32,000 nucleotides of DNA from Vibrio alginolyticus NBRC 15630 = ATCC 17749 (GCF_000354175.2 NC_022359.1:540001-572000), one strand, 5' to 3'; numbered from the stretch's first letter, positions 5,477 to 22,792 are shown. Numbers and translations are program-made. Notes: a model not told the origin generated them from the sequence alone.

Positions 5477-5706
5477 TCGCTTTATCTTTTGCTTTGCGGT
5501 TGCCTGATTGTACTCGTTTTTTCTATGAAGATATATCTAGGTGCATATTGTTAGGAACCTTTAGTACAAGTGAACATTAAACTCTAATAGTACGTTGCTG
5601 CTTCTTGGACTGAGTCCTGTGGACTTAAAGCCTTAGAGTGTGTAGTTGTTTAATTGGTAAATGAGTAATAAAATGCGAACCATTTTTATTTGAATGGTGA
5701 GTGGTA

Positions 5707-7782: not shown

Positions 7783-7833
7783 TTATCATGGCGCATCATC
7801 AGAGAGTACTTTACAAAAGTTTGCAAATGCAAA

Positions 7834-7876
7834 GAATGTAAATTTAATGCAAATGGTAATACTTATCACTTATATT
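7834..7876 (+). promoter_or_regulatory. Candidate Fur operator overlapping the receptor promoter
   Basis: The 19-mer at 7849-7867 (gcaaatggtaatacttatc) matches GATAATGATAATCATTATC at 14/19 by my count. The surrounding sequence is AT-rich and hexamer-like. A -10-like tatatt sits at 7871-7876. The downstream gene is a TonB-dependent receptor. Confidence 0.6.
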
Positions 7877-7952
7877 CACCCGCGAAATAATTAAGAGGGA
7901 ATCGCATTCAACAAGTATGTGACCCGAAAAATAATAATCGGAGTGAAAGGAT

Positions 7953-10049
7953 ATGTTTACTAAGAGCCATTTGGCGTTAGTGATCGGTGCAGTGTTAGCA
8001 ACACCTGCAGTGGCGGAAGTTCAAACAGACGAACATGTAGTTGTAGAAGGTCGAGAGTTCGGCTACAAGGCAGATACAAACAGTACAGCAATGCGCATGG
8101 AAATGACGCAGCTGGAAACGCCGGGACAAGTAGCGGTTATCGATGAAGCGGTAATTGATGAGCAGCGTGCAAGTACACTTGGTGAAGTGCTACGTAACGA
8201 TGCAAGTGTTAGCGCGGGTGGTACAAGCCGTAACCGCGAACGTTTCTCTCTACGTGGTTTTGAACTTAGCAGTTCAGACGGTTTTCTTCGTGATGGTCGT
8301 CAACACTGGTCACACTACCGTCAGCCAATTGAGCTTTTAGAGCGTGTTGAAGTGCTTAAAGGTCCATCAGGTCTGCTATACGGTAAATCTGAGCCGGGTG
8401 GTTTGGTAAACATGGTTTCGAAAAAACCAACAACTCAAACACAAGCAAGTTTGAGTCAAGATCTAGGTTCGAATGATCACTCACGCACTGTGCTTGATGT
8501 GAGTGGCGCGCTAAATGATGCAGAGACACTGCGAGCGCGCGCAATTTTTGCCAAAGAAAGCTACGGCTCTTGGCGCAGGTACGGTGATGGCACTGAGCCT
8601 AAAACAGATCGTACGGTAGCTGGCCTAGTGGTTGAGTACGATATCACAGACAACTTTATGGTATCGGCTCATTACGATCGCACGAAAGACGACGGTAGCG
8701 TGGACTCTGGCGCATACATTGTTGATGGCAAAGCGGTTCGCGGTGATAAGTACATTTGGGATGCGCAGTGGTCTGAAATTGATAACGAAGTAGAAAACTA
8801 CGGTGTCGATATTAATGCGCAAGTCACGGATAACGTGAACGTAAAAGCAGGTTACAACCGTCAAGACTTTAAGCGTTTTGATGTGGAGTCTTACCCAGGT
8901 TTCGAAACTTATGACCAAGATACTAAGATCGACCATTCTGGTAACGAACGCAAAGATAATTGGGTGTTTGATACTGCATATATAGATGTGACGACGGACT
9001 TTTCTCTGTTTGGTACAGATAACACGTTTTTGGTAGGTGCGAACTATCTAGAGTATACCTATGACCGTTTCCAAAAGTATTACAACCCTATAAGTATAGA
9101 AGCCGGTCAGACAGTGCCTCGTCCTGGCTACTCTGGGAAAGTTAAACAGTCCACAAGCGAGCACGATACTTGGGGTATCTACGCGCAAAATATGATGACG
9201 ATTAATGATTACTGGCAAGTGCTTGCAGGTGTTCGTTATGACGAAAAGCGTGATGATGACCTGACCGAAAACCAGGTTTCTCCAAAATTTGGTGTAATTT
9301 TCCACCCAGCGACGAATGGCTCGGTTTACGTTCAGTACTCTGAAAGCTTTATGCCGCAAGGTGAAGTCAGCAGTGGTCGTGGCAAAAAGTATATCAATGA
9401 TGGTGAGAAGCTAGACGCAGAGCGTGGTATCTCTTACGAGATCGGAACTAAGTGGGAACTGTTTGATCAGCGCTTATTTGTATCTGGTGCAGTGTTTGAT
9501 ATCACGTTAGAGAACATCTCGCTGGATGTTGAAAGCGGCAAAGACGCGGGCGGCAATCTCCTACACAAGAAAACGCAAGGTGGTGAGCAAGTTCACAAAG
9601 GTGCTGAGTTAATGGCTCAAGGTTTTGTGACCCCAGAGTTGTCGCTAACCGCTTCTGCAATGTATTTGGATGCAGAGCTTAAGAAGGCAGAAAGATATGA
9701 AGGTAACCGCCCTGTAGACGTGCCAGAGTTCTCGGCAAGTCTATGGTCTAGCTACAAGGTTCAAGACAACACTAACTTAAACCTTGGTTTGATTTATGAA
9801 GGTGATCGCTACGGTGATGCAAAGAACACCTTCAAGAAAGATGGCTACGCTCGCGTTGATATGGGCGTGTCATACAAACATAAGTACGATGAAAACTTGG
9901 ATATCATTGCTCGATTCAATGTCGAGAATTTATTCGATACCGACTACTTCGCAGGTGGTGGTAGCACGAATGGCGAGCAAAAAGGTGCGAGTGGGGTTGT
10001 GGTTGGAGAAAGCCGCAACTACATGGCAACAATCCAGTTCAAGTACTGA
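7953..10049 (+). CDS. TonB-dependent siderophore outer-membrane receptor
   Basis: Signal peptide ending AVA|EVQ. Plug-domain motifs (ETPGQVAVID, RGF..., VEVLKGPSGLLYG). Long beta-barrel region ending in aromatic ...IQFKY. Fur-like operator upstream. The two-component system plus receptor plus TonB2 layout resembles my recollection of the peuRS-peuA enterobactin-receptor locus of V. parahaemolyticus; identity was not verified. Confidence 0.9.
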   Translation: MFTKSHLALVIGAVLATPAVAEVQTDEHVVVEGREFGYKADTNSTAMRMEMTQLETPGQVAVIDEAVIDEQRASTLGEVLRNDASVSAGGTSRNRERFSLRGFELSSSDGFLRDGRQHWSHYRQPIELLERVEVLKGPSGLLYGKSEPGGLVNMVSKKPTTQTQASLSQDLGSNDHSRTVLDVSGALNDAETLRARAIFAKESYGSWRRYGDGTEPKTDRTVAGLVVEYDITDNFMVSAHYDRTKDDGSVDSGAYIVDGKAVRGDKYIWDAQWSEIDNEVENYGVDINAQVTDNVNVKAGYNRQDFKRFDVESYPGFETYDQDTKIDHSGNERKDNWVFDTAYIDVTTDFSLFGTDNTFLVGANYLEYTYDRFQKYYNPISIEAGQTVPRPGYSGKVKQSTSEHDTWGIYAQNMMTINDYWQVLAGVRYDEKRDDDLTENQVSPKFGVIFHPATNGSVYVQYSESFMPQGEVSSGRGKKYINDGEKLDAERGISYEIGTKWELFDQRLFVSGAVFDITLENISLDVESGKDAGGNLLHKKTQGGEQVHKGAELMAQGFVTPELSLTASAMYLDAELKKAERYEGNRPVDVPEFSASLWSSYKVQDNTNLNLGLIYEGDRYGDAKNTFKKDGYARVDMGVSYKHKYDENLDIIARFNVENLFDTDYFAGGGSTNGEQKGASGVVVGESRNYMATIQFKY

Positions 10050-10065
10050 TAACAATTTGATTATT

Positions 10066-10100
10066 AAAGGGGAAGGGTAGTCTTCCCCTTTGGTCGTTTT
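10066..10100 (+). terminator. Intrinsic terminator or attenuator hairpin between the receptor and ttpB
   Basis: Perfect 10-bp stem aaaggggaag (10066-10075) / cttccccttt (10082-10091), loop ggtagt, then ggtcgttttt. Confidence 0.65.
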
Positions 10101-10123
10101 TGGAACACAGAAATATAACTCGT

Positions 10124-10891
10124 ATGAATCTAATGAAATCAAGTATCGCTCTGTTGATATCATCGGTTTTGATTCCCGCTCACGCGGCGAACTTAAACGA
10201 TGCACAAGCTGTGCAGAGTAAAACAAACCAGTCGTCGGCGGTAAGCCAAAAACGTATTGATGCAAGCGCAGAAAAATCACTTACTCTAGAAGCTGAAATT
10301 GAGCAGCTGCAAGAAGAAGTCGGTAACTTGAAGATTTATCGCGATCATCTTGCAAGCCTTGTTGAGAGCCAAAATCAAGAAGTTGATAGCTTGAACGAGC
10401 AAATTGAACAGATTGCTCAAACTCGTCAAGGTGTCGTGCCTTTAATGTATCACATGCTTGAGGGCTTAAAAGTGCTCGTCGCTAACGACAAGCCTATACG
10501 CAAAGCGCAACGTGAGGAGCGAATTGCAAAGCTGGATTCCATGGTGACGCGTGCAGACGTTGCGGATGCAGAGAAGTTTCGTCGTATTTTAGAAGCGTAC
10601 CAAATTGAAATGGATTACGGCACCAAGCTTGGCGTTTACCAAGGCAAGATTAACCTGGGTGACAATGAAGCTGTGGAGGCGGACATTCTCTATTTAGGCC
10701 GTTTGTCTTTGGTAGCGCGTAGCTTATCTGGTGACACATTTTGGAGCTGGTCACAGCAACAACAAGCATGGCAACAAGTGGGTTCTGAGCAAAAATCAGA
10801 GCTAGACAAAGCGTTCGCTATGGCGAATAAACAGATCGCGCCGAGTATGTTAACTCTGCCAGTGTCGTTAACCGCTGCGGAGGGCAAATAA
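10124..10891 (+). CDS. ttpB: TonB2-system periplasmic coiled-coil protein, TtpB-like (DUF3450)
   Basis: Signal peptide (..IPAHA|ANL). Q/E-rich heptad-like region. It is the first gene of the canonical Vibrio TonB2-type cluster. The ORF track start is TTG 10100; ATG 10124 or 10133 is more plausible. Confidence 0.75.
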   Translation: MNLMKSSIALLISSVLIPAHAANLNDAQAVQSKTNQSSAVSQKRIDASAEKSLTLEAEIEQLQEEVGNLKIYRDHLASLVESQNQEVDSLNEQIEQIAQTRQGVVPLMYHMLEGLKVLVANDKPIRKAQREERIAKLDSMVTRADVADAEKFRRILEAYQIEMDYGTKLGVYQGKINLGDNEAVEADILYLGRLSLVARSLSGDTFWSWSQQQQAWQQVGSEQKSELDKAFAMANKQIAPSMLTLPVSLTAAEGK

Positions 10892-12259
10892 ATGATGAAA
10901 AAATGGTTATCGGTTGCATTAATCTCGACAGCCGCATTAATGCCTTATACAACTTTTGCTAGTGATGCGTTGTTACAAAAGGCGCAGCAAGAAAATCGTC
11001 AACAGCAATCGCACAATGTCGCGCGTGAATCAGGTTTTAAGCAAACAGAGCAAGACCTACAGGCTATAAAGAATAAATTGGTGGCAGAGCGTGCTGCTCT
11101 TCAAGCAGAGGCGGACTCATTAAGTATTACCTTCGGTGAAAATGAAGCAGAACTGGCACAGCTAGAAGAAAAGTTGCGTCTAGAAACCGGGAGCCTAGGT
11201 GAGTTATTTGGCGTCGTTCGCCAGAACGCAAAAGAGCTAGAGTCTGAGCTAAAAAGCTCAGTAACCGGTGTAGATGCAAACTCATATCAGAAAGATATCG
11301 ATGCTATTGTTGCGGCTAAATCACTGCCAACGTTGACCCAACTTCAGGCGATGTGGCGCAGCATGGAAGAACAAATCAAAGCAAGCGGTGAAATGGCAAA
11401 CGTCTCTTTCACACTGCTAAATGGCGAGGGTCGTGAACAAACGGTTAGTGGTGTTCGTCTTGGTTCTATGGCGCTGCTGGATGACACTGGCTACGTTAAG
11501 TGGAATGGTCAACGCGGAGATGCGGTAAACTATCTTCGTCAGCCTGAAAGCGGTCCAACAGCGAATACTATTTCCTCTGGTGACATTGATGCGCTTGTCA
11601 TAGATCCGTCACGTGGCATTCTTCTTGAGCAGCTCGCAAACTCACCGACTTTGGCTGATCGCCTAAATGCGGGTGGCGTTGTCGGCAAAATCATCCTTGG
11701 TTTATTGGCTATCGGCCTATTGATTGCGCTCGTACGTGGTGCATCTTTGATGATTTCGCGCCAGAAAATCATGAAGCAACTGAAAACCCCAGCGCAGCCA
11801 GGAAACAACCCTTTGGGTCGCGTGCTTGCGGTATACCAGAAAGACAAGCATCGCAGCGTAGAAGCGTTAGAACTACGTCTTTTGGAAGCCGTTGTTGATG
11901 AGCAAACCCACCTAGAAAAAGGGTTGTCGATGCTTAAGCTTCTTGCTGCTCTAGCTCCTATGCTTGGCCTACTAGGCACGGTAACGGGTATGATCGAAAC
12001 CTTCCAAGTCATCACTCAATTTGGTAATGGTGATCCGAAAGTAATGGCGGGTGGCATTTCGATGGCACTTGTGACTACCGTACTTGGCCTTGTTTCAGCC
12101 ATGCCTTTGCTATTAGCGCACAACGTATTGAGCTCTCAAGCAGAAAATATTCGCAGTATCTTAGAAAAACAAGGCATCGGTTTAGTTGCAGAACAAGCTG
12201 AGCGTGATATGCCGAATAACAAAAGTCACTCTAACACCTTAGCGGAGAACGCAGCGTAA
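10892..12259 (+). CDS. ttpC: TtpC-like large MotA/TolQ/ExbB-family proton-channel protein of the TonB2 system
   Basis: 455 aa. N-terminal signal/periplasmic coiled-coil half, then a C-terminal ExbB-like channel core (APMLGLLGTVTGMIETF...MAGGISMALVTTVLGL). Its position directly upstream of exbB-exbD-tonB is typical for Vibrio TonB2. Confidence 0.85.
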   Translation: MMKKWLSVALISTAALMPYTTFASDALLQKAQQENRQQQSHNVARESGFKQTEQDLQAIKNKLVAERAALQAEADSLSITFGENEAELAQLEEKLRLETGSLGELFGVVRQNAKELESELKSSVTGVDANSYQKDIDAIVAAKSLPTLTQLQAMWRSMEEQIKASGEMANVSFTLLNGEGREQTVSGVRLGSMALLDDTGYVKWNGQRGDAVNYLRQPESGPTANTISSGDIDALVIDPSRGILLEQLANSPTLADRLNAGGVVGKIILGLLAIGLLIALVRGASLMISRQKIMKQLKTPAQPGNNPLGRVLAVYQKDKHRSVEALELRLLEAVVDEQTHLEKGLSMLKLLAALAPMLGLLGTVTGMIETFQVITQFGNGDPKVMAGGISMALVTTVLGLVSAMPLLLAHNVLSSQAENIRSILEKQGIGLVAEQAERDMPNNKSHSNTLAENAA

Positions 12260-12813
12260 TGGAGCAGATCCTACTCAGCACATTGGGTTTGATCAGTGAG
12301 GATTGGGCCACAACCTTGATGAGCTTTATGCAGCAAGGTGGTCAAATCCTATGGTGGCTGGCCGCCGTCGTGGCGGTGTGCTGGCTGTTGGTTATGGAGC
12401 GAGTTATTTATCTCACAACGGTTTTCCCTGGGGTAAAAAAACAGCTTTGTGAGCAGTGGCACGCAAGATCAGAGCACCACTCTTGGTACGCGCATCAAAT
12501 CCGTGAAGGATGGATTGCAAAAGCGCAAATCGAACTACGCCAAAACCTATCGACTATTAAGCTACTTGTGGCGGTTTGCCCAATGCTAGGGTTGTTAGGG
12601 ACGGTGACAGGCATGATTACGGTGTTTGACGTAATGGCATCGCAAGGCAGCAGCAATCCGAAATTGATGGCTTCTGGTATCTCACTTGCTACGCTGCCAA
12701 CCATGGCAGGTATGGTAGCAGCGCTTGCGGGCATGTTTATTCATGCTCGCCTTAGCAAAGTGTGTGAACGAAAAGCTATCCAGTTAGAACAATCTTTAAG
12801 GAGTCAAAAGTGA
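12259..12813 (+). CDS. exbB: ExbB (MotA/TolQ/ExbB proton channel), TonB2-type system
   Basis: CPMLGLLGTVTGMITVF and LMASGISLATLPTMAGMVAAL core motifs. Three predicted TM segments. TAATG overlap with ttpC. Confidence 0.9.
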   Translation: MEQILLSTLGLISEDWATTLMSFMQQGGQILWWLAAVVAVCWLLVMERVIYLTTVFPGVKKQLCEQWHARSEHHSWYAHQIREGWIAKAQIELRQNLSTIKLLVAVCPMLGLLGTVTGMITVFDVMASQGSSNPKLMASGISLATLPTMAGMVAALAGMFIHARLSKVCERKAIQLEQSLRSQK

Positions 12814-13214
12814 GACTCGGACGCAGACCTAACCAACAAGATGAAGCTCAAGTCGATTTAACCTCGATGCTTGATATCGTCTTCATCATGTTGATCTTCT
12901 TCATTGTGACCAGTTCGTTTGTACGTGAATCCGGTGTAGAAGTGAATCGCCCCCAGGCTTCTAATGTAGTAAGTCAAAAAGACGCGGGCATTTTTATCGC
13001 AGTAACGGCAGCGAATGATGTGTACATTGACAAACGAGTGGTTGATATTGAGCGTGTTGAGGCCTCTATTGAGCACCTGTTACTTGATCAACCTGATGCT
13101 TCGTTAGTTATCCAAGCTGACGAGCATGCTTACAATGGCACTGTCGTGAAAGTGATGGACGCTGCAAAGGCGGCGGGTGTGAAGAACATTGCATTGGCGG
13201 CGGAGAAACCTTAA
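12810..13214 (+). CDS. exbD: ExbD/TolR-family biopolymer transport protein
   Basis: 134 aa. N-terminal DLTSMLDIVFIMLIFFIV TM segment. AAGGAG lies 6 nt before GTG 12810. GTGA overlap with exbB. Confidence 0.9.
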   Translation: MRLGRRPNQQDEAQVDLTSMLDIVFIMLIFFIVTSSFVRESGVEVNRPQASNVVSQKDAGIFIAVTAANDVYIDKRVVDIERVEASIEHLLLDQPDASLVIQADEHAYNGTVVKVMDAAKAAGVKNIALAAEKP

Positions 13215-13834
13215 TGGGCAGGCTGTTACTTGCACTACCAGCATCACTGTTAATTTCTGTGAGCTTGTTTAGCTTTATGGCGTGGATGGTTGATAAAGGC
13301 AACCAGCGTGCACCAGAAGCTTCAGAAGCCGTTCGTTTTGATATGGTGATGGTAGAGAATGAAGCAGACGTGCAGCGTCGTCAACGTTCAGTGCCGGAGC
13401 AACCAGAACCACCTCAAGCGCCGGAGCCAATGGATCTGTCTCAATCTGACACTCAAATGGAACCAATGAGTCAGATGACGCCAGTCAGTGCTTTAGGTTT
13501 AAACACAGCCCTTGAAGGCATCGCGATTAGCGCCCCAAACTTGAAGGGAACAATGGGCAACCAGCAAGCACTGCCGTTGTATCGTGTTGATCCTCGCTAT
13601 CCAAGTAAGGCGCTGAAACGTAGAGTGGAAGGTTATGTCATTATGCGTTTCACGATCGATGCAACTGGACGACCAAAAGATATTGAAGTGATCGAGGCTG
13701 AGCCCGAGCGCATGTTTGAAAGAGAAGCAATCCGTGCGCTTAAAAAATGGAAGTATCAGCCAAAAGTTGAGGATGGTGTGTCAATTGAGCAGTTCGGACA
13801 AACCGCTAAAGTGGAGTTCAAGTTAGCCAAATGA
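13214..13834 (+). CDS. tonB: TonB energy transducer (TonB2-type)
   Basis: N-terminal TM anchor, Pro/Glu-rich spacer (PEQPEPPQAPEP), and a C-terminal TonB domain (YPSKALKRRVEGYVIMRFTIDATGRPKDIEVI...ALKKWKYQP). Confidence 0.9.
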   Translation: MGRLLLALPASLLISVSLFSFMAWMVDKGNQRAPEASEAVRFDMVMVENEADVQRRQRSVPEQPEPPQAPEPMDLSQSDTQMEPMSQMTPVSALGLNTALEGIAISAPNLKGTMGNQQALPLYRVDPRYPSKALKRRVEGYVIMRFTIDATGRPKDIEVIEAEPERMFEREAIRALKKWKYQPKVEDGVSIEQFGQTAKVEFKLAK

Positions 13835-15003
13835 TGAAAAAATTCTTAATCGGTACGGTATTAAGCCTGAGTGCACTCTCAACCATTGCCAGTGAGTTAA
13901 GCCAATACACCGCAGCGAGAGTTCAACGAGCATACAACTTGGCTCAAGAAGAGAAACTGAAAGAAGCGATTTCATCTCTTGAAGCTATGGAGCTTTCTCG
14001 TGGATATGACCAAGCTTATGTCGCTCGAATGTTGGGTATTTTTTACTGGCAGAATGAGCAAACTCAAGCGGCGATTAAGCAACTTGAGTTGGCAGTCAAT
14101 AGTGGTTTGCTACAAGATGAGCAATCATGGCAAACCCGAAAAATGTTGGCTGATATACTGCTGAACGAGCAACGTTTTTCTAAGGCGTTACCTCATTACT
14201 ATGCCTTGAGCAAAAACATTCCTAAAGGTCAAAAAGCGCATGAGCTATGGCTACGTATTTCCCAATCTCATTATCAACTGAGTCAGTGGCAAAAAGTGCT
14301 TTCAGCAATGGCTCGTTATGAGAAGTTTGGTCAGCCAGACAAGCTTGGCGCATTGTCGATAAAGCTTTCTGCTGAGCTAGAACTGAAAAAGTGGAAGCCG
14401 GCAATCTCGACCATCAAACGCTTAATCGTGATTGAACCTGAGCGAATTGAATGGTGGCGTCAGCTTGTTGCTCTATATCTACGGGTTGATGACAACAAAC
14501 GTGCCCTAGACTCTTTGGCGTTGGCAAAACTGAAAGGGTTACAACTTAGCCAAGATGACTTAAAGCTGCTGGCACAATTGTACGCGAAACGAGGTATTCC
14601 TGAGAGAGCTGCGTTGGTGATGAACGAGCTAGAGGATGTAAACTCGAATAGTAAGCTAAAAGCTCAGCAAGCAACGTATTGGCAAATGGCAAAAGAGTGG
14701 GAAGAATCTATTGATAGCTGGCGTATTGCAGCTCAGCTAGATAGGCAGTATTACTGGAACTATTCTCAACTGTTGGTGCAAGAAGGCCATTATAAAGATG
14801 CCATTGCCGCGCTCGATAATGTCAGAGGTCGTAAAGCGGATGTTGCACTTATCAAAACTCGCGCTTACTACAAACTTAAGCGGTTTGACGATGCGCTCGC
14901 TAACGCCAAAAGAGCGAATGAGATTAAGCCGTCTAATCAGGCAAAAAGTTGGGTTAAGTATCTATCTCAGCTACGCAAAGTAGAATCGACGCAGAACTCA
15001 TAG
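13831..15003 (+). CDS. ttpD: TtpD-like exported TPR-repeat protein, terminal gene of the TonB2 cluster
   Basis: Signal peptide, then repeated 34-aa TPR-like helical units throughout. ATGA overlap with tonB. Confidence 0.75.
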   Translation: MMKKFLIGTVLSLSALSTIASELSQYTAARVQRAYNLAQEEKLKEAISSLEAMELSRGYDQAYVARMLGIFYWQNEQTQAAIKQLELAVNSGLLQDEQSWQTRKMLADILLNEQRFSKALPHYYALSKNIPKGQKAHELWLRISQSHYQLSQWQKVLSAMARYEKFGQPDKLGALSIKLSAELELKKWKPAISTIKRLIVIEPERIEWWRQLVALYLRVDDNKRALDSLALAKLKGLQLSQDDLKLLAQLYAKRGIPERAALVMNELEDVNSNSKLKAQQATYWQMAKEWEESIDSWRIAAQLDRQYYWNYSQLLVQEGHYKDAIAALDNVRGRKADVALIKTRAYYKLKRFDDALANAKRANEIKPSNQAKSWVKYLSQLRKVESTQNS

Positions 15004-15019
15004 CGAACATTTTTATTAA

Positions 15020-15049
15020 ATACCCGAGCTCAGTCTCGGGTATTTTTTG
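15020..15049 (+). terminator. Rho-independent terminator of the TonB2 operon
   Basis: Stem atacccgag (15020-15028) / ctcgggtat (15035-15043), loop ctcagt, T6 run 15044-15049. Confidence 0.85.
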
Positions 15050-15060
15050 TTTAAAGTAAA

Positions 15061-15103
15061 CAATGTAAATTAAATGCCAATACGAATGATTATCACCTAA
15101 ATT
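15061..15103 (+). promoter_or_regulatory. Candidate Fur operator/promoter of the PepSY-DUF2271-DUF4198-ABC locus
   Basis: The 19-mer at 15076-15094 (gccaatacgaatgattatc) matches the Fur consensus at 13/19, with 9/10 in the AATCATTATC half. A -10-like taaatt sits at 15098-15103. The 43-nt block is about 80% identical, ungapped, to the block at 7834-7876. Confidence 0.6.
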
Positions 15104-15123
15104 ATGCCCCACATTTATTGGTG

Positions 15124-15765
15124 ATGATTGTTTCTATGTTGCTTAAAAGCAAAGGTGTTCAAACTTGGGCTCGCCGCCTACATATCTATATTTCGATGGC
15201 TCTTCTCTTAGTTACGCTGTTTTTTGCAGTAACTGGTATTACCCTCAATCGCCCCGAATTGTTTGAACGCAGTGAACCTATCATTCAACAACATACTCTG
15301 ACGGTTCCGCACTCAGTTCTATTCTCACATTCAGATACCTTTCAACCTAATCGTGAAGAACTGGTGGCTTTCTTGACTAAAGAAACCGAGCTTCGCGGCA
15401 CTCCTTCCGCACTAGATGTGTATACCGAAGTTGAGCAAGGTGAGTTGTTACTCGGAGAGCTTTCTATGGATTTTAAAGGCCCGGGTTATAACGCTACGGT
15501 CTTTATTGATATGACTACTGGTGCGGCTGATGTTGAAACGACGCACTACGGTATTGTTGCGCTGCTGAACGATCTACATAAAGGACGCAACAGTGGCGGG
15601 ATTTGGAAGTGGTTTATCGACGTCACTGCGCTTTTGATGGTGTTTTTTGTTCTTACAGGCGTGTGCTTGTTACTGCCTAAGAAGAAGACGCTCAGAACGT
15701 CAATGCAATGGATGAGCTTTGGTACGTTACTGTCGCTCGTAATTTATTTTGTTGCTGTTCCATAA
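15124..15765 (+). CDS. PepSY-associated TM-helix family inner-membrane protein (PiuB/VciB-like, candidate periplasmic ferric reductase)
   Basis: N-terminal WARRLHIYISMALLLVTLFFAVTGITLNRP and C-terminal LNDLHKGRNSGGIWKWFIDVTALLMVFFVLTG helices with conserved His, flanking a loop of about 110 aa. The start is ambiguous (TTG 15118, GTG 15121, ATG 15124 or ATG 15136). Confidence 0.75.
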   Translation: MIVSMLLKSKGVQTWARRLHIYISMALLLVTLFFAVTGITLNRPELFERSEPIIQQHTLTVPHSVLFSHSDTFQPNREELVAFLTKETELRGTPSALDVYTEVEQGELLLGELSMDFKGPGYNATVFIDMTTGAADVETTHYGIVALLNDLHKGRNSGGIWKWFIDVTALLMVFFVLTGVCLLLPKKKTLRTSMQWMSFGTLLSLVIYFVAVP

Positions 15766-15786
15766 CAGCTTTTTTAGAGAACACTT

Positions 15787-16326
15787 ATGTTGAACACAGG
15801 AAGGTTTTTCCGCCGTAATCACTTTTGTAAAGCCGCTTTGATCGCGGCTTTTACTCCTTTCTCTCTTTCCGCGGCGCCTCTACCAGATAACGCGAAGGTC
15901 GACTTCGAACTCGAACTTCCAAAGATAGATACCTCAATGTATGCACGCCCTTATGTGGCGGTTTGGGTTGAAAACGATCAGCGTAAACCGGTTAAAACCA
16001 TTCAGTTATGGGTAGGGAAAGACGAATGGTTAAAAGATCTACGCAGCTGGTGGAGAAAAGCGGGTCGTTATGATCGTGAACTTGTTGATGCGGTGACTTC
16101 TGCAACACGTCCTGCTGGTCAATACCGCTTTGTCTGGGATGGAACCAATGACGCAGGGGAGCGTTTGGAACAAGGAAATTACACGTTGTACGTCGAGGTC
16201 GTTCGTGAACACGGTGGGCGAAACTACTTACGTCAAAAAATAACGCTAGCGGACAGTGACGTGCGCTATGAGCTTAAACCAACACAAGAGACGGGTGTCA
16301 TCACCGTCAATTATCAAGTTAAGTGA
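15787..16326 (+). CDS. DUF2271 domain-containing exported protein
   Basis: Signal peptide, then family-typical YARPYVAVWVEN...LWVGKDEWLKDLRSWWRK...DAVTSATRPAG... Confidence 0.8.
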   Translation: MLNTGRFFRRNHFCKAALIAAFTPFSLSAAPLPDNAKVDFELELPKIDTSMYARPYVAVWVENDQRKPVKTIQLWVGKDEWLKDLRSWWRKAGRYDRELVDAVTSATRPAGQYRFVWDGTNDAGERLEQGNYTLYVEVVREHGGRNYLRQKITLADSDVRYELKPTQETGVITVNYQVK

Positions 16327-16341
16327 TTAAAGGACACAACA

Positions 16342-17172
16342 ATGAAAACCAAAATGAAAGCAGTGGCATTGGCGAGTGTAATGGCAATGGGATTGGCTGT
16401 AACCACCACCGCACAAGCACATCCACGTTGGGTTCTGCCCTCTCACTTTACGGTTTCTAAAGAAGGCGGTGACTGGCTGACATTTGATGTTACTGCCTCT
16501 CACGGAACGTTTGTTTTTGATAAGCCTGCGGGTAGTGATCAGGCATTTGTGGTGATGCCGGATGGCCGCTCTGAGCGTCCTAACTTTGTTGTTCGTGGCA
16601 AGCGTCGCTCTATGTTTGATTTCTTTTTTACAGAAGAAGGCACGCACAAAGTCGCGATTAATAATCAGCCGAGCTACTACACACAATACAAAGCGGGCCG
16701 TCGTGATACGGTGAAATGGGCGCGAGCAAACAAAGCTGAGCGTGGTGACGTGCTTCCTGAGCAAGCGCGTGATGTGGTTACTCAACTAAGTTACACCCGA
16801 GCAGAAAGCTACATTACGGTTGGTATGCCAACGGACAAAGCGTTGGAGATTGAAGGCAAAATGCTGGAGATGAAACCGATCACGCATCCATCGGACATCA
16901 TTGAAGGTGAGCCTGTGACTTTCCAGTTTTTCTTTAACGGAGAGCCACAAGAGGGCGTTACTGCTGAGATTACACGTGAAGGTACCATGTACCGAAACCA
17001 TCAAGAACAAATCGATGTGGTGAGCGATAAAGATGGCAAAGTGATCTTCACGCCAGAAGTCGCCGGGCGCTACTTAATGAAAGCGAACTACAAAGGTGAA
17101 TTAAAAGATAATCCATTGGCGGATAAAGCGAGTGCCAATGTTCATCTTACGTTTGAAACTCAACTTAACTAA
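16342..17172 (+). CDS. DUF4198 domain-containing periplasmic protein
   Basis: Signal peptide ..TTTAQA|HPRWVLPSHF. C-terminal transthyretin/Ig-like module (VTFQFFFNGEPQEGV...DKDGKVIFTPEVAGRYLMKA), typical of DUF4198. Confidence 0.8.
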   Translation: MKTKMKAVALASVMAMGLAVTTTAQAHPRWVLPSHFTVSKEGGDWLTFDVTASHGTFVFDKPAGSDQAFVVMPDGRSERPNFVVRGKRRSMFDFFFTEEGTHKVAINNQPSYYTQYKAGRRDTVKWARANKAERGDVLPEQARDVVTQLSYTRAESYITVGMPTDKALEIEGKMLEMKPITHPSDIIEGEPVTFQFFFNGEPQEGVTAEITREGTMYRNHQEQIDVVSDKDGKVIFTPEVAGRYLMKANYKGELKDNPLADKASANVHLTFETQLN

Positions 17173-17214
17173 TCGAATTAGGCTCAGCAATTGCTGGGCC
17201 ATTTTGGAATTATC

Positions 17215-17535
17215 ATGAATAACACTTCTCTTCTAAAAGCGGTTTTGCTTTTTTCTGGATTTGCGTCCTTTCACGCTGCTGCACATTTTCCTCTGATGAG
17301 CTGTCACTTGGCGCAAGATAAAGTGATTTGTGAAGCGGGCTACTCGGATGGATCGACAGCGGTCGACTACGATGTCGAAATGTACGATTACGACGACAAT
17401 CTGATCGCCAAAGAAAAAACAGATAAGCGTTCCATCGCAGAATTTACTCACCCTGAAACAGATTTCTATTTGGTATTTGATGCCGGACATGAAAGCCCGG
17501 TGGAAGTGGATATCGTTGAGCTGAAAGAGAAATGA
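17215..17535 (+). CDS. Small exported hypothetical protein (106 aa), predicted mature N-terminus His-Phe-Pro
   Basis: Signal peptide MNNTSLLKAVLLFSGFASFHAAA|HFPLMSCH. Two Cys residues. Acidic Ig-like C-terminal part. The stop overlaps the next start (ATGA). The ORF track start TTG 17191 is less likely. Confidence 0.65.
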   Translation: MNNTSLLKAVLLFSGFASFHAAAHFPLMSCHLAQDKVICEAGYSDGSTAVDYDVEMYDYDDNLIAKEKTDKRSIAEFTHPETDFYLVFDAGHESPVEVDIVELKEK

Positions 17536-18083
17536 GTGTACAGAAAGTTCGCCCTGATGATGGTAACCGAGAAGGAAAGTGGGTCGCACTGACAATCGCA
17601 GCAATTCTCAGTTCAGCAGCCATACTTATGCCCTACCATCAGGTCGCGACTGAAAAGCCAGACATGCAGTCTCATCAAGTGTTAATCACGGATTTACATC
17701 AAAATGAGTTGGGGTTGATCGCTGAGCTTAAGCTCGCTCATGAAGAGATTCGTGATTTGCAGTTAGATACCGGAACTTGGCCTGAGATCTCTGATATGGA
17801 GGTGCTTTGGATTGCTCCGTTCGTGAAAGACCAAAACTGGAAGCGTAAAGGTTCTCATCAGTGGCAACGAATTGATGACGGTGTCTACATTGGCGTGAAG
17901 ACCAGTGCCCAAGGCTCTGCTTCCATGCTGTTGGATAGCCGCAGTTCTCAAGCTGATATTTGGTTTAATGATTCTAGCCGTTCGTTAAATGTGGAGGGAC
18001 TAAGCGATCTAGCTAAACGCCACGATTTCGGGTGGAAACAAATCGTTCTGTCAGACTCTTCCTCTCATTCTCACGCCCATTAA
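17532..18083 (+). CDS. Hypothetical single-pass membrane protein with a periplasmic domain and a His-rich C-terminal tail (possibly the DUF6162 family)
   Basis: One TM segment (WVALTIAAILSSAAILMPY). A soluble domain of about 145 aa ending in SDSSSHSHAH. Translationally coupled to the upstream gene. The family assignment is from memory and uncertain. Confidence 0.65.
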   Translation: MSVQKVRPDDGNREGKWVALTIAAILSSAAILMPYHQVATEKPDMQSHQVLITDLHQNELGLIAELKLAHEEIRDLQLDTGTWPEISDMEVLWIAPFVKDQNWKRKGSHQWQRIDDGVYIGVKTSAQGSASMLLDSRSSQADIWFNDSSRSLNVEGLSDLAKRHDFGWKQIVLSDSSSHSHAH

Positions 18084-18105
18084 GACAACATAATTGATAA
18101 GTACT

Positions 18106-19032
18106 ATGATCAAACGCTCTCTTTTACGTCGTATTCTTACAGCCACCGCGTTATTGACGGTGTCTTCTACTGGCTTTGCTGCCGATAAACTCAGTATTGG
18201 TATTACGCTTCAACCTTATTACAGCTATGTTAAAGCCGTTGTTGGTGAGAAGGCGGACATCGTTCCTTTGGTTGATGCTGGTTTTAATCCTCACAACTAT
18301 TTGCCACAACCTAATGATCTTAAGCGCTTAAATGAAATGGACGTAATAGTGATCAATGGTATTGGTCATGACGATTTTGCACTGAAAGTGATCAAGGCTT
18401 CTCAGCGTGATGATCTCGTGGTTATCGAAGCGAACAAAGAAGTGCCTTTATTGCCCGCTATGGGGCAGTCTGTTGGTCAAGGAGCAGTGAACCCTCACAC
18501 CTTTGTCGGTCTATCAACAACCATTCAAAAGGTTTACACCATCGCGAGTGAGCTAAGCCAATTGGACCCAGACAATGCTACGTTCTATCGCCAAAATGCT
18601 CGTAAATACGCGAAAACATTTCGCCTGATGAAGCGTGATGCAATGTTGTCTCTTGGTGAGTTGGACACGGCTGGTATGAAGGTGGCGACAACCCACAATG
18701 CTTACGGATATATCCTTCAGGAGTTTGGTGTTGACGTTGCCGCTGTCATTGAGCCTGCTCATGGTGTAGAACCAAGTGCAAGTCAGCTACAGGAAACGAT
18801 AGAGAAAATTCGTGAATCGGGCATTGATGTTCTGTTTTATGAGCTCAATATGCCGAATCGCTTTGTTGATACCATCGAAGAGGCGACCGGGGTGCAGCTT
18901 TATCGCTTTTCTCACATGACTCACGGTGAGTATGAGGCTGATAAAGTCGAGGTTGAGATGCGAGATAATGTGGAAACACTAATCGAAGCCATGAAATTTG
19001 TGGCGAGTAAGCGAGCAGGGGAAAAGGCGTGA
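18106..19032 (+). CDS. Metal ABC transporter substrate-binding protein (cluster A-I, ZnuA/TroA family)
   Basis: Signal peptide. The three canonical His-ligand motifs are present (GFNPHNY, AVNPHTF, ATTHNAYGY). The ORF track start is TTG 18094; I prefer ATG 18106. Confidence 0.85.
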   Translation: MIKRSLLRRILTATALLTVSSTGFAADKLSIGITLQPYYSYVKAVVGEKADIVPLVDAGFNPHNYLPQPNDLKRLNEMDVIVINGIGHDDFALKVIKASQRDDLVVIEANKEVPLLPAMGQSVGQGAVNPHTFVGLSTTIQKVYTIASELSQLDPDNATFYRQNARKYAKTFRLMKRDAMLSLGELDTAGMKVATTHNAYGYILQEFGVDVAAVIEPAHGVEPSASQLQETIEKIRESGIDVLFYELNMPNRFVDTIEEATGVQLYRFSHMTHGEYEADKVEVEMRDNVETLIEAMKFVASKRAGEKA

Positions 19033-19760
19033 TGACTGGACCTTCCGTTTCCTTAAGTAACGTGGGCCTAAAATACGCCGACAATATCATTTTGCAGAAC
19101 ATCAGCGCCGAATTCGAGAACGCGAAATGTCACGTTATTATGGGACCGAACGGCGGTGGTAAAACCTCTTTGCTTCGTTCGGTACTTGGACTCACGCCAT
19201 TTTCGGGAAACATAGCGCTCAATTGGCCAGAACCATCAGCTGCATCGGGGAAGATAGGGTATGTGCCACAAAAAGCGATGTTTGAAGCAAGCCTCCCGTT
19301 AACCGTGATGGATTTTGTACTGCTTAACCAAACTCGTATCCCTCTATTTTGGCGACGTAAAACGAAACAAACTCAACATGCCCTGGCCCAGCTGGATCGC
19401 GTGGGTATGGCAACGCGTAGCGACCGTCGTATGGGGCAACTCTCTGGCGGTGAGCAACAGCGTGTTTTGTTTGCGCAAGCTTTACTGGATGAGCCCAATT
19501 TATTGGTTTTAGACGAACCTACAACTGGCATGGATGAGCAAGGTGTTCGATATCTTGAAGGTTTGATTCATGAAGTTGTTGGAGAAGGCAAAACGGTGGT
19601 GGCAGTACATCATGACGTGACCGCCGTGCGCCGTTTAGATGCGCAGGTCCATGTCGTAAATCGTCAAATTGTGGCGTCAGGTCACCATTCAGATGTGCTA
19701 AGCCCTGATCGTATAGAAACATTATTCAAGCACTACACAGCAAAAGTGGAGGCTGCATAA
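19029..19760 (+). CDS. Metal ABC transporter ATP-binding protein (ZnuC/TroB-like)
   Basis: Walker A GPNGGGKTS, signature LSGGEQQR, Walker B LLVLDEPTTGMD. Start is GTG 19029 or ATG 19032; both overlap the SBP stop. Confidence 0.9.
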   Translation: MMTGPSVSLSNVGLKYADNIILQNISAEFENAKCHVIMGPNGGGKTSLLRSVLGLTPFSGNIALNWPEPSAASGKIGYVPQKAMFEASLPLTVMDFVLLNQTRIPLFWRRKTKQTQHALAQLDRVGMATRSDRRMGQLSGGEQQRVLFAQALLDEPNLLVLDEPTTGMDEQGVRYLEGLIHEVVGEGKTVVAVHHDVTAVRRLDAQVHVVNRQIVASGHHSDVLSPDRIETLFKHYTAKVEAA

Positions 19761-20635
19761 TGGATTGGTTGCGAGAGTTAGCGGTTAGCGGCGTTGAAGC
19801 TGGATGGTTAAGCGATAGCTTTTCTTATGCCTTCATGGTAAACGCAATTGTGGCAGCGCTGATATTAGGACCATTACTTGGTGGTCTTGGTACATTAGTC
19901 ATCGCCAAGCGACTGGCTTTTTTCTCTGAAGCGGTTGGGCATGCTGCGCTTACCGGAATCGCGATTGGTGTGTTGCTCGGTGAGCCGCCAGAGAATCCGA
20001 TCATCGGATTGTTTAGCTTTTGTATGATTTTTGCGCTGTTGCTTCACTTTGTTCGTAATCGTACGAATGTACCTTACGACACACTGGTTGGGGTTTTTCT
20101 TGCATTAGCGTTAGCGGTTGGTGCTGCGCTGTTAATGTACGTTGCTCGTAAGATCAACATTCACATGTTGGAGAACGTGTTGTTTGGCTCGATCTTGACT
20201 GTGACGGACAACGATATCCTTATTTTAGCGATCAGTTGTTTGATCATATTACTGCTTCTTATTCCAACGTTTAACCGCATTTTGCTAACTTGTATCAGCC
20301 CGGATATTGCACGTGTACGCGGCTTTAATACCAGCTTTTATGATTACTTATTTGTCATGATGATCACCTTGGTCACCATCGCCGCGGTAAAGATTATTGG
20401 CGCGGTATTGGTTGGTGCATTGCTGCTGATTCCTGGTGCAACGGCTAGGTTATTGACTAAACGCATGGGCAGTTTTGTTCTCCTTTCTTCTTTATTGGCA
20501 ACCATTGCGTGTTTAATAGGAACCATACTGCCGATGGAGCTTGAGCTACCAGTGCCATCAGGCGCATCCATCATCATTGTTTCTGCGGCATTTTTCCTAA
20601 CAGCAACGGTTTACCGAATTATCCAAAAAGCGTAA
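19760..20635 (+). CDS. Metal ABC transporter permease (ABC-3 family, ZnuB/TroCD-like)
   Basis: 291 aa, 8-9 hydrophobic helices, ABC-3-type sequence. TAATG overlap with the ATPase gene. Confidence 0.88.
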   Translation: MDWLRELAVSGVEAGWLSDSFSYAFMVNAIVAALILGPLLGGLGTLVIAKRLAFFSEAVGHAALTGIAIGVLLGEPPENPIIGLFSFCMIFALLLHFVRNRTNVPYDTLVGVFLALALAVGAALLMYVARKINIHMLENVLFGSILTVTDNDILILAISCLIILLLLIPTFNRILLTCISPDIARVRGFNTSFYDYLFVMMITLVTIAAVKIIGAVLVGALLLIPGATARLLTKRMGSFVLLSSLLATIACLIGTILPMELELPVPSGASIIIVSAAFFLTATVYRIIQKA

Positions 20636-20651
20636 CCCTTTTTATAAAGTA

Positions 20652-21527
20652 ATGAACATGAAGATAAAAAAATTAGCGATAACTTTTGGTTTGGTTATAG
20701 CGACAACACTTCCATCGTTGGCAAGCGCCAAAGACATTTTAACCAGCACTCCCGTCACGTACATGTTGTCTGAGCAACTCATGAAAGGTACAGGGATAGA
20801 GACTCAGTATCTGCCTCCAAAGCGTTACGGCGTTGAGCGTCTTGAGAACTGGTTCGCAAATAAAGGTACAGAGCAAGTTAAGCAAGCGGGTCAAGCCGCG
20901 ACGGTTGCTATTACTCTTGGTGCGATTTGGAAACAAGACCCGACTTATGTTTACGCTCGACAGGGCAACATTCACTTGATTGAAATCGATGCATCGCAGG
21001 CCATTTCTCCTAGAGCTCAAGGAGTTGCAGTTCTGACATTGGAAAACGGGTCAACATCGAAGTACGCATGGCTGAACCCTACAAACTTAATCCGAATGGC
21101 GGGCATTGTTGGAGAGGATCTACAACGTGTATATCCTGAACACCAAAAGGCGATTCAAACGAATCAACAGGCTCTTATGCTCAATGTGCGTGAACTGATC
21201 AACCAACAACAGGCAGAGATCTTCGATAAAGGCATCGATTCAGTGGTACTGATGAGTGAGTCATTAGAGGACTTTGCCTCTGGCAACCAATTGTTTGTGG
21301 TTGGGCGCGAATTTAAGCCGGAACTTGAGTGGACAGAAGAAGACAAATTATCTTTAAAAGCTCAGTTTGAACAAGATAAAACGCTATGGTTAGTGACGGA
21401 TAAACGACCGTCGAAAACCTTGACATCGCTTATTAAACCGAGCCGCATACTGCAAATTGATGTTATTGACCGCTGGGGCAGTAACGGTATCAAAACTGAG
21501 AAGCCACTCGCACGTTGGGAGATGTGA
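20652..21527 (+). CDS. Exported TroA/ZnuA-fold-like protein lacking the canonical metal-ligand histidines (degenerate second SBP)
   Basis: Signal peptide ..SLASA|KD. Colinear by eye with the SBP at 18106-19032, but the ligand motifs read YLPPKRY, AWLNPTNL and VLMSESLEDF, with no His at any of the three positions. Confidence 0.7.
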   Translation: MNMKIKKLAITFGLVIATTLPSLASAKDILTSTPVTYMLSEQLMKGTGIETQYLPPKRYGVERLENWFANKGTEQVKQAGQAATVAITLGAIWKQDPTYVYARQGNIHLIEIDASQAISPRAQGVAVLTLENGSTSKYAWLNPTNLIRMAGIVGEDLQRVYPEHQKAIQTNQQALMLNVRELINQQQAEIFDKGIDSVVLMSESLEDFASGNQLFVVGREFKPELEWTEEDKLSLKAQFEQDKTLWLVTDKRPSKTLTSLIKPSRILQIDVIDRWGSNGIKTEKPLARWEM

Positions 21528-21742
21528 CACGTAAAAAGCCACAGATTTTATGATGGGGAGTGAAAAGTTCCCTATTTTTTTGTGATTAAGCTCAAAATGT
21601 GAGCATTGATACCACTGGTTGCATAAGAAAGTGTTTGTTTCATTTCTATTTCATTACTACTTTGTTATGTGTTCGTTGCGATTGATTCGGATTTAATCTG
21701 TTTCTAAGCGAACCGGTACAAACAACTATACGGATGTTAACA

Positions 21743-22792
21743 ATGAAAATGAAAACTCTAGCCGTTGCAGTGGCGGCACTAGCATGTGGTTCACAGGCCT
21801 TCGCAGCAGAAGTTTACAACAGCGATGGTACATCTTTATCGATCGGCGGTCACGTTTCAGTTGGCGTGGGTGAGTATTTCGAAGAAGAAGTAAAAGTTCA
21901 CCAAGTGTCTCCACGTATCAATGTTGCGGGCAAGAAAGACATTGGCAACGGTATCACTATCGACGCTAAAGGCGAATGGGCACTTAACTACCTAAATGGT
22001 GGTAGCCAGTCGTTTTCAACTCGTTTGGGCTACATCGGCGCGACCCACCAGCAGTTTGGCCGTTTAGTGGGAGGTACACAGTGGTCTCCGTACTACGATG
22101 TCGCTGGCGTTGCGGATCTACCAATCGCGTTCGCGAACGACTTTTTGTACGACAATCACAACAATCTAGGTACTGGTCGTGCTGAAAAAATGATCAGCTA
22201 CCGTAAAAGCTTTGAGTTTGGCGAAGGTTTTGCTTTCAACCTAGGTCTTGGTTGGCAAGGTGAAAATGATGATAGAGGCCTATCATTACAACAAAACCCT
22301 AACACAGGTCTTCCAGAATACGTTTCTAAAGGCAGCAAGTATGACCAACGTGGTCAAATCGCACTGAGCGGCTCTGTTGCGGGCTTTGGTCTAGGCTACG
22401 TATACAGCGGCGGTGATGTTGAGAATTCTGGTCTAGGTACTAAAACTGCTGAATCACACCTTGTTTCTGTAAATTACGGTGAGTATGGCTCTGGTCTGTA
22501 CGCAGCTGTTGTATACGGCATGAACGAATACTTCTACGAGATGCGTGAAGAAACTACTCAGATTGAGGGCCTACTAGCGTACGGAGTCAACAATTGGACG
22601 TTCAGCGTTAACTACGAAGGTGTAGAAGACGACAAAGACAACAAGACAGTTTCAAGCGAAACTGCGCTACAAGCAGAGTACGCAGTAACTCCTGCATTCG
22701 TTACTTTCGCTGGTTACCAGTTTGACCTAGGTAACGACTACAACAATGAAGAGAACGACTACTGGACTCTAGGTGCTCGTTACTACTTCTAA
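21743..22792 (+). CDS. General-diffusion outer-membrane porin (OmpC/OmpU superfamily)
   Basis: Signal peptide MKMKTLAVAVAALACGSQAFA|AEVYN. Alternating beta-strand pattern. C-terminal ...LGARYYF. ATGs at 21734, 21743 and 21749 are all possible starts. Confidence 0.88.
   Translation: MKMKTLAVAVAALACGSQAFAAEVYNSDGTSLSIGGHVSVGVGEYFEEEVKVHQVSPRINVAGKKDIGNGITIDAKGEWALNYLNGGSQSFSTRLGYIGATHQQFGRLVGGTQWSPYYDVAGVADLPIAFANDFLYDNHNNLGTGRAEKMISYRKSFEFGEGFAFNLGLGWQGENDDRGLSLQQNPNTGLPEYVSKGSKYDQRGQIALSGSVAGFGLGYVYSGGDVENSGLGTKTAESHLVSVNYGEYGSGLYAAVVYGMNEYFYEMREETTQIEGLLAYGVNNWTFSVNYEGVEDDKDNKTVSSETALQAEYAVTPAFVTFAGYQFDLGNDYNNEENDYWTLGARYYF

Follow-up and report, generated by a model that had tools for sequence, protein, structure and literature searches.

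A predicted Fur-repressed nine-gene locus of Vibrio alginolyticus related to the fpvGHJKCDEF iron-release and import system of Pseudomonas aeruginosa

Here we analyze a locus of nine consecutive genes in Vibrio alginolyticus NBRC 15630 = ATCC 17749, contained in a window of 32,000 nucleotides (nt) that is the whole stretch of DNA analyzed (GCF_000354175.2 NC_022359.1:540001-572000; positions are counted from its first letter). Calling of open reading frames (ORFs) over this 32-kb window placed the nine genes, here named g1 to g9, at 15118-21527 on the + strand. They probably form an operon repressed by Fur that serves reductive release of iron in the periplasm followed by import of ferrous iron, i.e. 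a Vibrionaceae version of the FpvGHJK-FpvCDEF system of Pseudomonas aeruginosa. The solid findings are that g4-g9 are homologous to FpvJKCDEF, that ligand residues and the operator are conserved, and that the nine genes are conserved together. The original prediction, drawn up from this DNA, had proposed one iron-repressed module that releases or reduces metal, passes it along carrier proteins and imports it through an ATP-binding cassette (ABC) system; such a module is what homology to P. aeruginosa fpvGHJKCDEF implies, and the mechanism proposed at that stage was broadly right.

Results

In P. aeruginosa the locus PA2403-PA2410 encodes FpvG (403 amino acids (aa), with PepSY_TM and PepSY domains), FpvH (179 aa, UCP029505), FpvJ (109 aa, no Pfam match) and FpvK (186 aa, DUF6162), followed by FpvC, FpvD, FpvE and FpvF. 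The system frees the iron of ferripyoverdine by reducing it in the periplasm: the inner-membrane reductase FpvG requires FpvH, FpvC chelates Fe(II) and hands it on for import by FpvDE, FpvF is the siderophore-binding protein, and a periplasmic FpvJ-FpvC-FpvF complex contacts FpvG and FpvH, while FpvJ and FpvK are still listed as of unknown function (PMC6954188). From the fourth gene on, the Vibrio locus encodes full-length homologues of FpvJ, FpvK, FpvC, FpvD, FpvE and FpvF in identical order, and both operons are compact, predicted to be iron-regulated and headed by a membrane protein of the PepSY_TM superfamily.

The binding protein g6 (18106-19032, or 18094-19032 with the earlier start) is of the FpvC type within cluster A-I and shares 50% identity with FpvC (blastp, E 1e-103). 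It matched the crystal structures of FpvC (6R3Z, 6R44, 6R5S and 6RU4) at E 5e-91, versus at best 6e-25 for the next matches, Mn and Zn binding proteins, and at best 1e-5 for ZnuA structures. The mutant entry 6R6K differs from wild-type FpvC at exactly six positions, each a change of His to Gly, which we take to be the Fe(II) site of FpvC, and g6 has His at 6/6 of them. These six His residues lie in the motifs NPH, GHDD, NPHTF, TTH, PAHG and SHM and are kept in 77-80 of 80 orthologues, the orthologues being those of 80 related loci found by a genome scan seeded with g5 in Vibrio (Harveyi, Splendidus and other clades), Photobacterium and Moritella. To judge from its sequence, g6 is predicted to be an Fe(II) carrier. 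It is followed by an FpvD-type ABC ATPase, g7 (19029-19760; 41% identity to FpvD, blastp E 3e-60), and an FpvE-type ABC-3 permease, g8 (19760-20635; 52% identity to FpvE, blastp E 3e-96). The last gene, g9 (20652-21527), encodes a second periplasmic binding protein of the FpvF type, with 31% identity to FpvF over 245 aa (blastp, E 4e-32) and a full-length profile match (hhalign probability 100, E 7e-71). Both g9 and FpvF have WLNPTNL where metal-binding relatives have NPH, which is consistent with the reported siderophore-binding role of FpvF, and g9 is predicted to bind a chelate or siderophore.

The Pfam domains of the importer (ZnuA in g6, ABC_tran in g7, ABC-3 in g8 and a sub-threshold ZnuA in g9) belong to the same fold families as those of ZnuABC, TroA and MntABC, and a ZnuABC/TroA-type importer had been predicted here. 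By homology it is instead FpvC, FpvD and FpvE with a second binding protein, FpvF. Neither a conserved Zur-like box, nor a His-rich Zn loop, nor a site of three His plus Asp/Glu was found in the locus or in g6, which has six His compared with the usual three- or four-ligand site of cluster A-I, and in contrast to ZnuABC there is an extra FpvF-type binding protein. FpvC itself continues to be commonly labelled "adhesion protein" or "zinc ABC transporter substrate-binding protein".

Domain calls made earlier for the locus were borne out by Pfam except that two of the products had been counted as orphans, and these are FpvJ-like and FpvK-like, respectively. The first, g4, a small periplasmic protein, ends at 17535 and starts at 17191 or 17215, the latter being likely because its homologues are 106 aa long. 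It has no significant Pfam match, but it aligns with FpvJ at 34% identity (blastp, E 3e-14) and over the full length in profile comparison (hhalign probability 100, E 2e-47). Invariant among g4 homologues are A|HFPLMxC, C30, C39 and GHExPVEVD, and FpvJ has the same layout (A|HNPICEC ... DAGPGH). An exhaustive profile search of 1.84 billion proteins returned 179 cluster representatives of the FpvJ family; of the 112 that were aligned, 106 have His at the mature N terminus and about 90% keep the Cys pair, and distant members are about 200 aa long with a C-terminal membrane helix. The AlphaFold2 (AF2) model of g4 is an all-beta sandwich (predicted local distance difference test, pLDDT, 80) with no specific PDB fold match. 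The conserved residues suggest that FpvJ and g4 may be metal-binding relay proteins. Separately, very large repeat proteins (1000-4800 aa) give multiple matches to the g4 profile at positions ~50-90, through either a shared Ig-like/acidic repeat or a composition artefact of the YDYDDNL stretch.

The second, g5 (17532-18083), is not an orphan because it matches DUF6162 (PF19659, 5e-17), and it aligns with FpvK at 28% identity over 176 aa (blastp, E 3e-16) and over the full length by profile (hhalign probability 100, E 1e-47). Its AF2 model (pLDDT 74) has one N-terminal membrane helix and an alpha/beta domain, with no PDB fold match, and no mention of DUF6162 was found in the literature search. 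The C-terminal tail of g5 reads SHSHAH (18066-18083), with only the last His moderately conserved, and that of FpvK reads RQHRH; the g5 tail may bind metal weakly. One deposited P. aeruginosa VRFPA02 "adhesion protein" of 472 aa combines DUF6162 with ZnuA, in which FpvK and FpvC have probably been fused through annotation or a frameshift.

FpvG (four helices according to the literature) and FpvH are absent from the Vibrio locus, and three other proteins take their place, one with three helices from the PepSY_TM_like_2 family, one from DUF2271 and one from DUF4198. The first of these, g1 (15118-15765), is 209-215 aa long depending on the start, with ATG 15136 the likely true start because the V. 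campbellii orthologue has 209 aa. It is a short inner-membrane protein with about three hydrophobic helices, matches PF16357 (PepSY_TM_like_2, 2e-62) and PF03929 (1e-12) in Pfam, and keeps His22 (WARRLHiY) and His153 (LNDLHKGRNSG) in at least 95% of ~80 orthologues. For PepSY-like proteins bis-His haems are predicted, and for FoxB they have been demonstrated; g1 is a candidate transmembrane electron carrier. The exported protein g2 (15787-16326; PF10029, DUF2271, 4e-46) carries the motif D[AG]VTSAT in 79/80 orthologues, as DAVTSAT in g2 itself, and is a probable ApbE-flavinylated electron-transfer protein. The pairing of a PepSY-like protein with DUF2271 is kept in all related loci. The periplasmic protein g3 (16342-17172; PF10670, DUF4198, 4e-47) has a signal peptide and a mature N-terminal His motif (AQA|HPRW..PSH) in 75/80 orthologues and is predicted to be a periplasmic metal-binding protein of the DUF4198 family; it matches the DUF4198 protein Zcp (9MHI) distantly, with two of the three Zcp zinc histidines absent. 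Remote homology of g1 to FpvG, and of g2 or g3 to FpvH, was considered and rejected at hhalign probabilities below 1.

The statement in the original prediction that DUF2271 and DUF4198 have no assigned mechanism is outdated. The relevant passages of Meheust et al. (2021, eLife) describe flavinylation of DUF2271 by ApbE at [S/T]GA[S/T], as well as 3220 clusters that combine PepSY-like proteins (PF03929/PF16357), DUF2271 and secreted DUF4198 with a predicted role in iron reduction (PMC8238504). Two DUF4198 proteins are known as periplasmic metal binders, namely Zcp, which binds Zn (PMC12663993), and IsDUF4198, which binds Ni through an N-terminal His (PMC12537917).

Wherever one of the 80 loci was not cut by a contig end, tblastn recovered all nine genes colinear and on one strand, and the same order was found in chromosome 2 of V. 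campbellii and in two more distant contigs recovered with g4. Co-occurrence of the two halves of the locus, which had been predicted, was thus present in every related locus examined, in a census that was seeded with the core. The median junctions across loci were 22, 35, 66, -4, 38, -4, -1 and 21 nt. A parallel census of long metagenome loci seeded with FpvJ, in which all matches were Pseudomonas-like, gave the form FpvG-FpvH-J-K-C-D-E-F in 38/39. No mixed forms, with parts of both the FpvG/FpvH arrangement and the g1-g3 arrangement, were seen among the loci examined, and the pattern looks like non-orthologous replacement of a reductase module on a conserved core. The earlier remark that no experimental description of the arrangement exists holds for the exact nine-gene form, but six of the nine genes have studied counterparts in Pseudomonas and the g1-g3 module has been described bioinformatically.

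The promoter/operator block upstream of g1 covers about 48 nt (15056-15103, + strand) and comprises a Fur-like box and three AATG repeats at 15062, 15073 and 15085, spaced by 11-12 nt. Though the box at 15076-15097 agrees in the window with 13/18 informative positions of AATGATAATNATTATCATT (consensus scan), it is conserved across orthologous promoters, being kept in position in essentially all 80 related loci and rising to 16/18 in Photobacterium and Moritella. The block is at least 85% conserved in 20 diverse loci, in which the flanks are not alignable, and its most conserved part is the 15-mer GTAAAYAATGTAAAT, situated upstream of the Fur-like box and exact in 79/80 genome loci. As had been read from the sequence earlier, nine same-strand genes stand behind one Fur-like operator: comparison among related loci located the conserved operator upstream of g1 only and found no conserved operator, Fur-like or Zur-like site at the internal junctions. 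Candidates within the locus were two 13/18 Fur-like matches, at 17208-17226 (g3/g4 junction) and 18093-18111 (g5/g6 junction), and a promoter-like match at 18082-18110 that overlaps the latter; they are not conserved elsewhere and were rejected as chance or coding constraint. Zur control was likewise rejected, as the 80 upstream regions gave scattered Zur-consensus matches of 11-15/20 without positional conservation.

The promoter of the peuA-like receptor gene upstream (7829-7885) has the same architecture as the g1 promoter, including the same 23-nt spacing; the architecture common to 7829-7885 and 15056-15103 extends over ~55 nt as AATGTAAATT-AATGC-AAT...TTATCAC-TA-ATT with identical spacing. 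Its upstream half contains GTAAA-N4-GTAAA, a CpxR-like direct repeat (the CpxR consensus is GTAAA-N5-GTAAA), and may be an extended Fur array or a -35 region. In V. parahaemolyticus the operons peuRS and peuA-tonB2 are both Fur-dependent, the latter being experimentally Fur-repressed and ending at VPA0156, just before the orthologues of the nine-gene locus (PMC4141801). A V. parahaemolyticus transcriptome paper reports vpa0159, the g3 orthologue, to be up together with iron-uptake genes in low-iron Dulbecco's modified Eagle's medium (DMEM), and this was the only mention of VPA0157-0165 found in the literature. From the conserved operator and its likeness to the peuA promoter, the nine-gene operon is predicted to be iron- and Fur-repressed.

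The gaps given earlier for the nine genes (21, 15, 42, -4, 22, -4, -1 and 16 nt) are recovered with the g4 start at 17215 and the g6 start at 18106. The strong terminator with which the preceding TonB2 operon had been said to end is real: at 15018-15045 (+ strand) an 11-bp stem precedes a T-run in an intrinsic hairpin of -15.3 kcal/mol (z -4.7), which 0 of 200 shuffles equalled. A second one at 21552-21576 (+ strand), with a T-run after the stem, closes the nine-gene unit (-13.7 kcal/mol, z -3.5; 0/200 shuffles). It had been stated that no hairpin with a T-run lies inside the unit; a single one does exist, at 15754-15769 on the 3' side of g1, and the statement is nevertheless essentially right because that hairpin is weak (-6.3 kcal/mol, z -1.4; equalled by 21/200 shuffles), so it was rejected as an internal terminator. 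An Rfam scan of the locus gave no match.

Domain matches placed upstream, all on the + strand, a peuRS-like two-component pair (5701-7745), a peuA-like TonB-dependent siderophore receptor (7953-10049) and the TonB2 system ttpB-ttpC-exbB2-exbD2-tonB2-ttpD (10100-15003), a gene order identical to that of the characterized V. parahaemolyticus VPA0148-0156 (PMC4141801). Fur-like boxes upstream of the peuR-like regulator (5672-5690, 13/18) and of the receptor (7852-7870, 15/18) match the Fur-dependent peuRS and peuA-tonB2 operons of that species. The peuA-like receptor and TonB2 are the likely outer-membrane supply route. Placement of the locus right after a receptor and TonB2, stated in the original prediction, is common without being obligatory: among 74 loci having enough upstream sequence, the end of the TonB2 operon was at most 1.5 kb upstream in 34, 1.5-8 kb upstream in 20 and absent from the flank in 20, so that the association is strong, not obligatory.

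Several other features of the neighborhood were recorded. In V. campbellii, ttpD and g1 are separated by a gene for an Rce1-like (CPBP) membrane protease (6619-7464 of that locus), and gaps of ~0.9-1.5 kb suggest that it is also inserted in V. diabolicus and further loci of the Harveyi clade; the window strain is without it because only 115 nt separate ttpD from g1. Downstream of the operon, a 352-aa ORF (21734-22792) has no Pfam match at 1e-5 and occurs, among related loci, in the Harveyi clade only; its V. campbellii orthologue has a weak Porin_1 match, and the ORF may encode an outer-membrane porin. The window also contains a tRNA gene (141-228) and two ORFs without a Pfam family (510-965, 151 aa; 1374-2405, 343 aa).

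Discussion

In the mechanism that we favor, ferric chelates would enter the periplasm through TonB2-energized receptors, such as the adjacent PeuA-like one, and would be held there by the FpvF-like g9. Electrons would be carried across the inner membrane by g1, probably via haem on its two conserved His in a dimer, and would pass to g2, on whose DAVTSAT Thr the cellular ApbE has probably placed flavin mononucleotide (FMN), and g2 would reduce Fe(III). The released Fe(II) would then be caught by the N-terminal-His proteins g3 and g4 and passed to the six-His site of g6 for import by g7/g8, with the FpvK-like g5 as a membrane-anchored accessory. Inferred elements of this scheme are that iron is the substrate, that electrons flow in this direction, that g2 is flavinylated, that g1 binds haem and that the metal is handed on in this order. 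The substrate must be a chelate other than ferripyoverdine because there are no pyoverdine genes in these loci: the window contains no pvd genes, and the MbtH, thioesterase and aminotransferase genes that flank the P. aeruginosa locus do not flank the Vibrio loci. In contrast to Pseudomonas, the Vibrio promoter has a Fur-like box, and there is linkage to TonB2 and, for Harveyi-clade loci, also to the enterobactin receptor PeuA. A further and more tentative proposal, which we regard as possible rather than likely, is that a natural module swap has occurred, in which FpvG/FpvH have been functionally replaced, on the FpvJKCDEF core, by a three-helix PepSY_TM protein of the VciB type together with DUF4198 and a flavinylated DUF2271 protein.

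The same PepSY-like/DUF2271/DUF4198 set is found in the PepSY-like flavinylation clusters treated in the pertinent passages of Meheust et al. (2021) and Huang et al. (2024, mSystems), and in both cases the clusters are predicted to be Fur-regulated and are receptor-associated, the published ones being predicted to reduce Fe(III). As far as these passages go, the published clusters often, if not universally, include an ApbE gene, whereas the nine-gene cluster is without one, and they mention associations with VIT1 and TonB but not the link to an FpvJKCDEF-type core that is seen here. V. cholerae VciB, according to the same part of Meheust et al. the sole characterized member of the short PepSY-like class (PMC8238504), can be likened to g1 by family: it is in the same Pfam family, and g1 has conserved His near its membrane helices. 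VciB is described there as feeding general ferrous transporters without flavinylation partners, whereas g1 is clustered with DUF2271.

Several observations weigh against the reading of the locus as an Fpv-like iron system. The reductase step rests on analogy because g1 is not FpvG-like (blastp E 0.02; hhalign probability 0.3; only the Pfam family PepSY_TM in common) and nothing FpvH-like (UCP029505, PF27732) was found among the window proteins by blastp or hhalign. The TSAT of g2 has Ser in place of the Gly of the published [S/T]GA[S/T] motif, and no ApbE domain was found in ORFs of at least 110 aa in the window, nor was ApbE found among the called genes of the V. campbellii locus and the two distant contigs. 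Vibrio is expected to carry a chromosomal ApbE elsewhere. The DUF4198 proteins that have been characterized bind Zn or Ni, not Fe, and both g3 and g4 have relatives in Ni/Co transport (NikK/NikL). The Fur-like box of the window is not significant alone because the window holds 8 sites of 13/18 quality versus 2.5 expected. In a copper RNA-seq study of V. parahaemolyticus, the presumed orthologues, VP_RS16040 onward, are absent from the table of differentially expressed Fur-regulon genes, in which the adjacent peuA-tonB2 genes are present. Finally, because the census was seeded with g5 and g4, it cannot give the frequency of Fpv-like cores with other partners. Three alternative explanations draw on some of these observations, and all are less well supported than reductive iron release and import.

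The first alternative is that another divalent metal (Ni/Co, Zn, Mn or Cu) is imported, with g3 and g4 acting in NikK/NikL-like capture and g1 and g2 acting on Cu(II) or another redox substrate. The His-dependent Zn and Ni binding of Zcp and IsDUF4198 would fit this, as would a below-cutoff match of g4 to the NikL family of Ni/Co energy-coupling factor (ECF) subunits and the fact that the best NCBIfam matches of g6-g8 are AztCAB and MntC, all below their cut-offs. A copper role could be suggested by the PepSY_TM protein CrpH, which the literature links to copper, and an N-terminal His followed by Met, as in HFPLM, is reminiscent of copper sites. The likeness to the Ni/Co systems and their relatives is, however, partial: g3 belongs to the NikK/Zcp family and, like g4, has the mature N-terminal His of IsDUF4198, and g4 is distantly related to the NikL periplasmic domain, but the NikMNQO genes are absent, the partner is an Fpv-type ABC system under Fur-like regulation, and g3 is without most of the Zcp zinc histidines. 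Against Zn there is no positionally conserved Zur-like box, whereas the operator that is conserved is Fur-like and mirrors the peuA promoter. Moreover, g6 is by far closest to FpvC, with the six His kept and no His-rich loop, g9 matches a siderophore-binding protein, and there is linkage to a siderophore receptor and TonB2. We consider import of another metal unlikely.

Another possibility is that two independent systems share one promoter, a VciB-like reductase of g1-g3 feeding Feo-type transporters and a separate FpvJKCDEF-like importer with its own substrate. According to the passages cited from Meheust et al., thousands of clusters contain the PepSY-like/DUF2271/DUF4198 module but not this ABC system (PMC8238504); in Alteromonas the module adjoins iron-regulated receptors with no ABC transporter, and the Pseudomonas Fpv core has another reductase pair as its partner. 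Of the eight junctions, g3-g4 and g5-g6 are the loosest (medians 66 and 38 nt), and the promoter-like match at 18082-18110 falls at the second of them. Independence of this kind would not account well for the finding that the order of the nine genes is unchanged in all complete loci, from at least three genera and the two distant contigs, nor is there a conserved operator or Fur-like box at the internal junctions or a significant internal terminator. The Pseudomonas reductase interacts physically with periplasmic FpvJ/C/F, and because of this interaction a reductase encoded just upstream of FpvJ is the expected arrangement for a joint system. Two unconnected systems therefore seem quite improbable to us.

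Least probable, and not mutually exclusive with control by Fur, is that the upstream block is bound by a non-Fur regulator, e.g. an OmpR/CpxR-type protein at GTAAA-N4-GTAAA in what would mainly be an envelope or other stress response: the most conserved 15-mer does lie outside the Fur-like box, the direct repeat within it resembles the CpxR consensus and the window box scores only 13/18, but the spacing is N4 rather than N5, the three AATG half-sites of the block follow the helical spacing of extended Fur operators, in other genera the box rises to 16/18, and the same architecture recurs at the peuA-like promoter, which is Fur-dependent in V. parahaemolyticus.

The main value of recognizing the locus as an Fpv-like system for iron release and ferrous import is that several DUF families become tied to an already characterized pathway. 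It connects the work on iron release from pyoverdine in Pseudomonas with the PepSY-like/DUF2271/DUF4198 clusters, a link that was not found in the parts of the literature covered by our search, which likewise returned no link of FpvC to any Vibrio locus. For annotation, g6-g9 should not be called zinc transporters, and the conserved mature N-terminal His gives the FpvJ family a specific hypothesis, i.e. metal binding. The locus also offers a genetically tractable system in which to study the roles of DUF2271, DUF4198, FpvJ and FpvK. If a module swap of this kind has occurred, DUF2271 would be a periplasmic electron donor to Fe(III), DUF4198 and FpvJ (a relative of the NikL domain) would be N-terminal-His relays for Fe(II), and DUF6162/FpvK would be their membrane anchor; together they would define a marine ferric-chelate reductase and Fe(II) importer that acts downstream of TonB2 and is not bound to one siderophore. 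If the swap is functional, Fpv-type reduction and Fe(II) import would not be a speciality of pyoverdine users but would be general in marine Vibrionaceae, which use many foreign siderophores.

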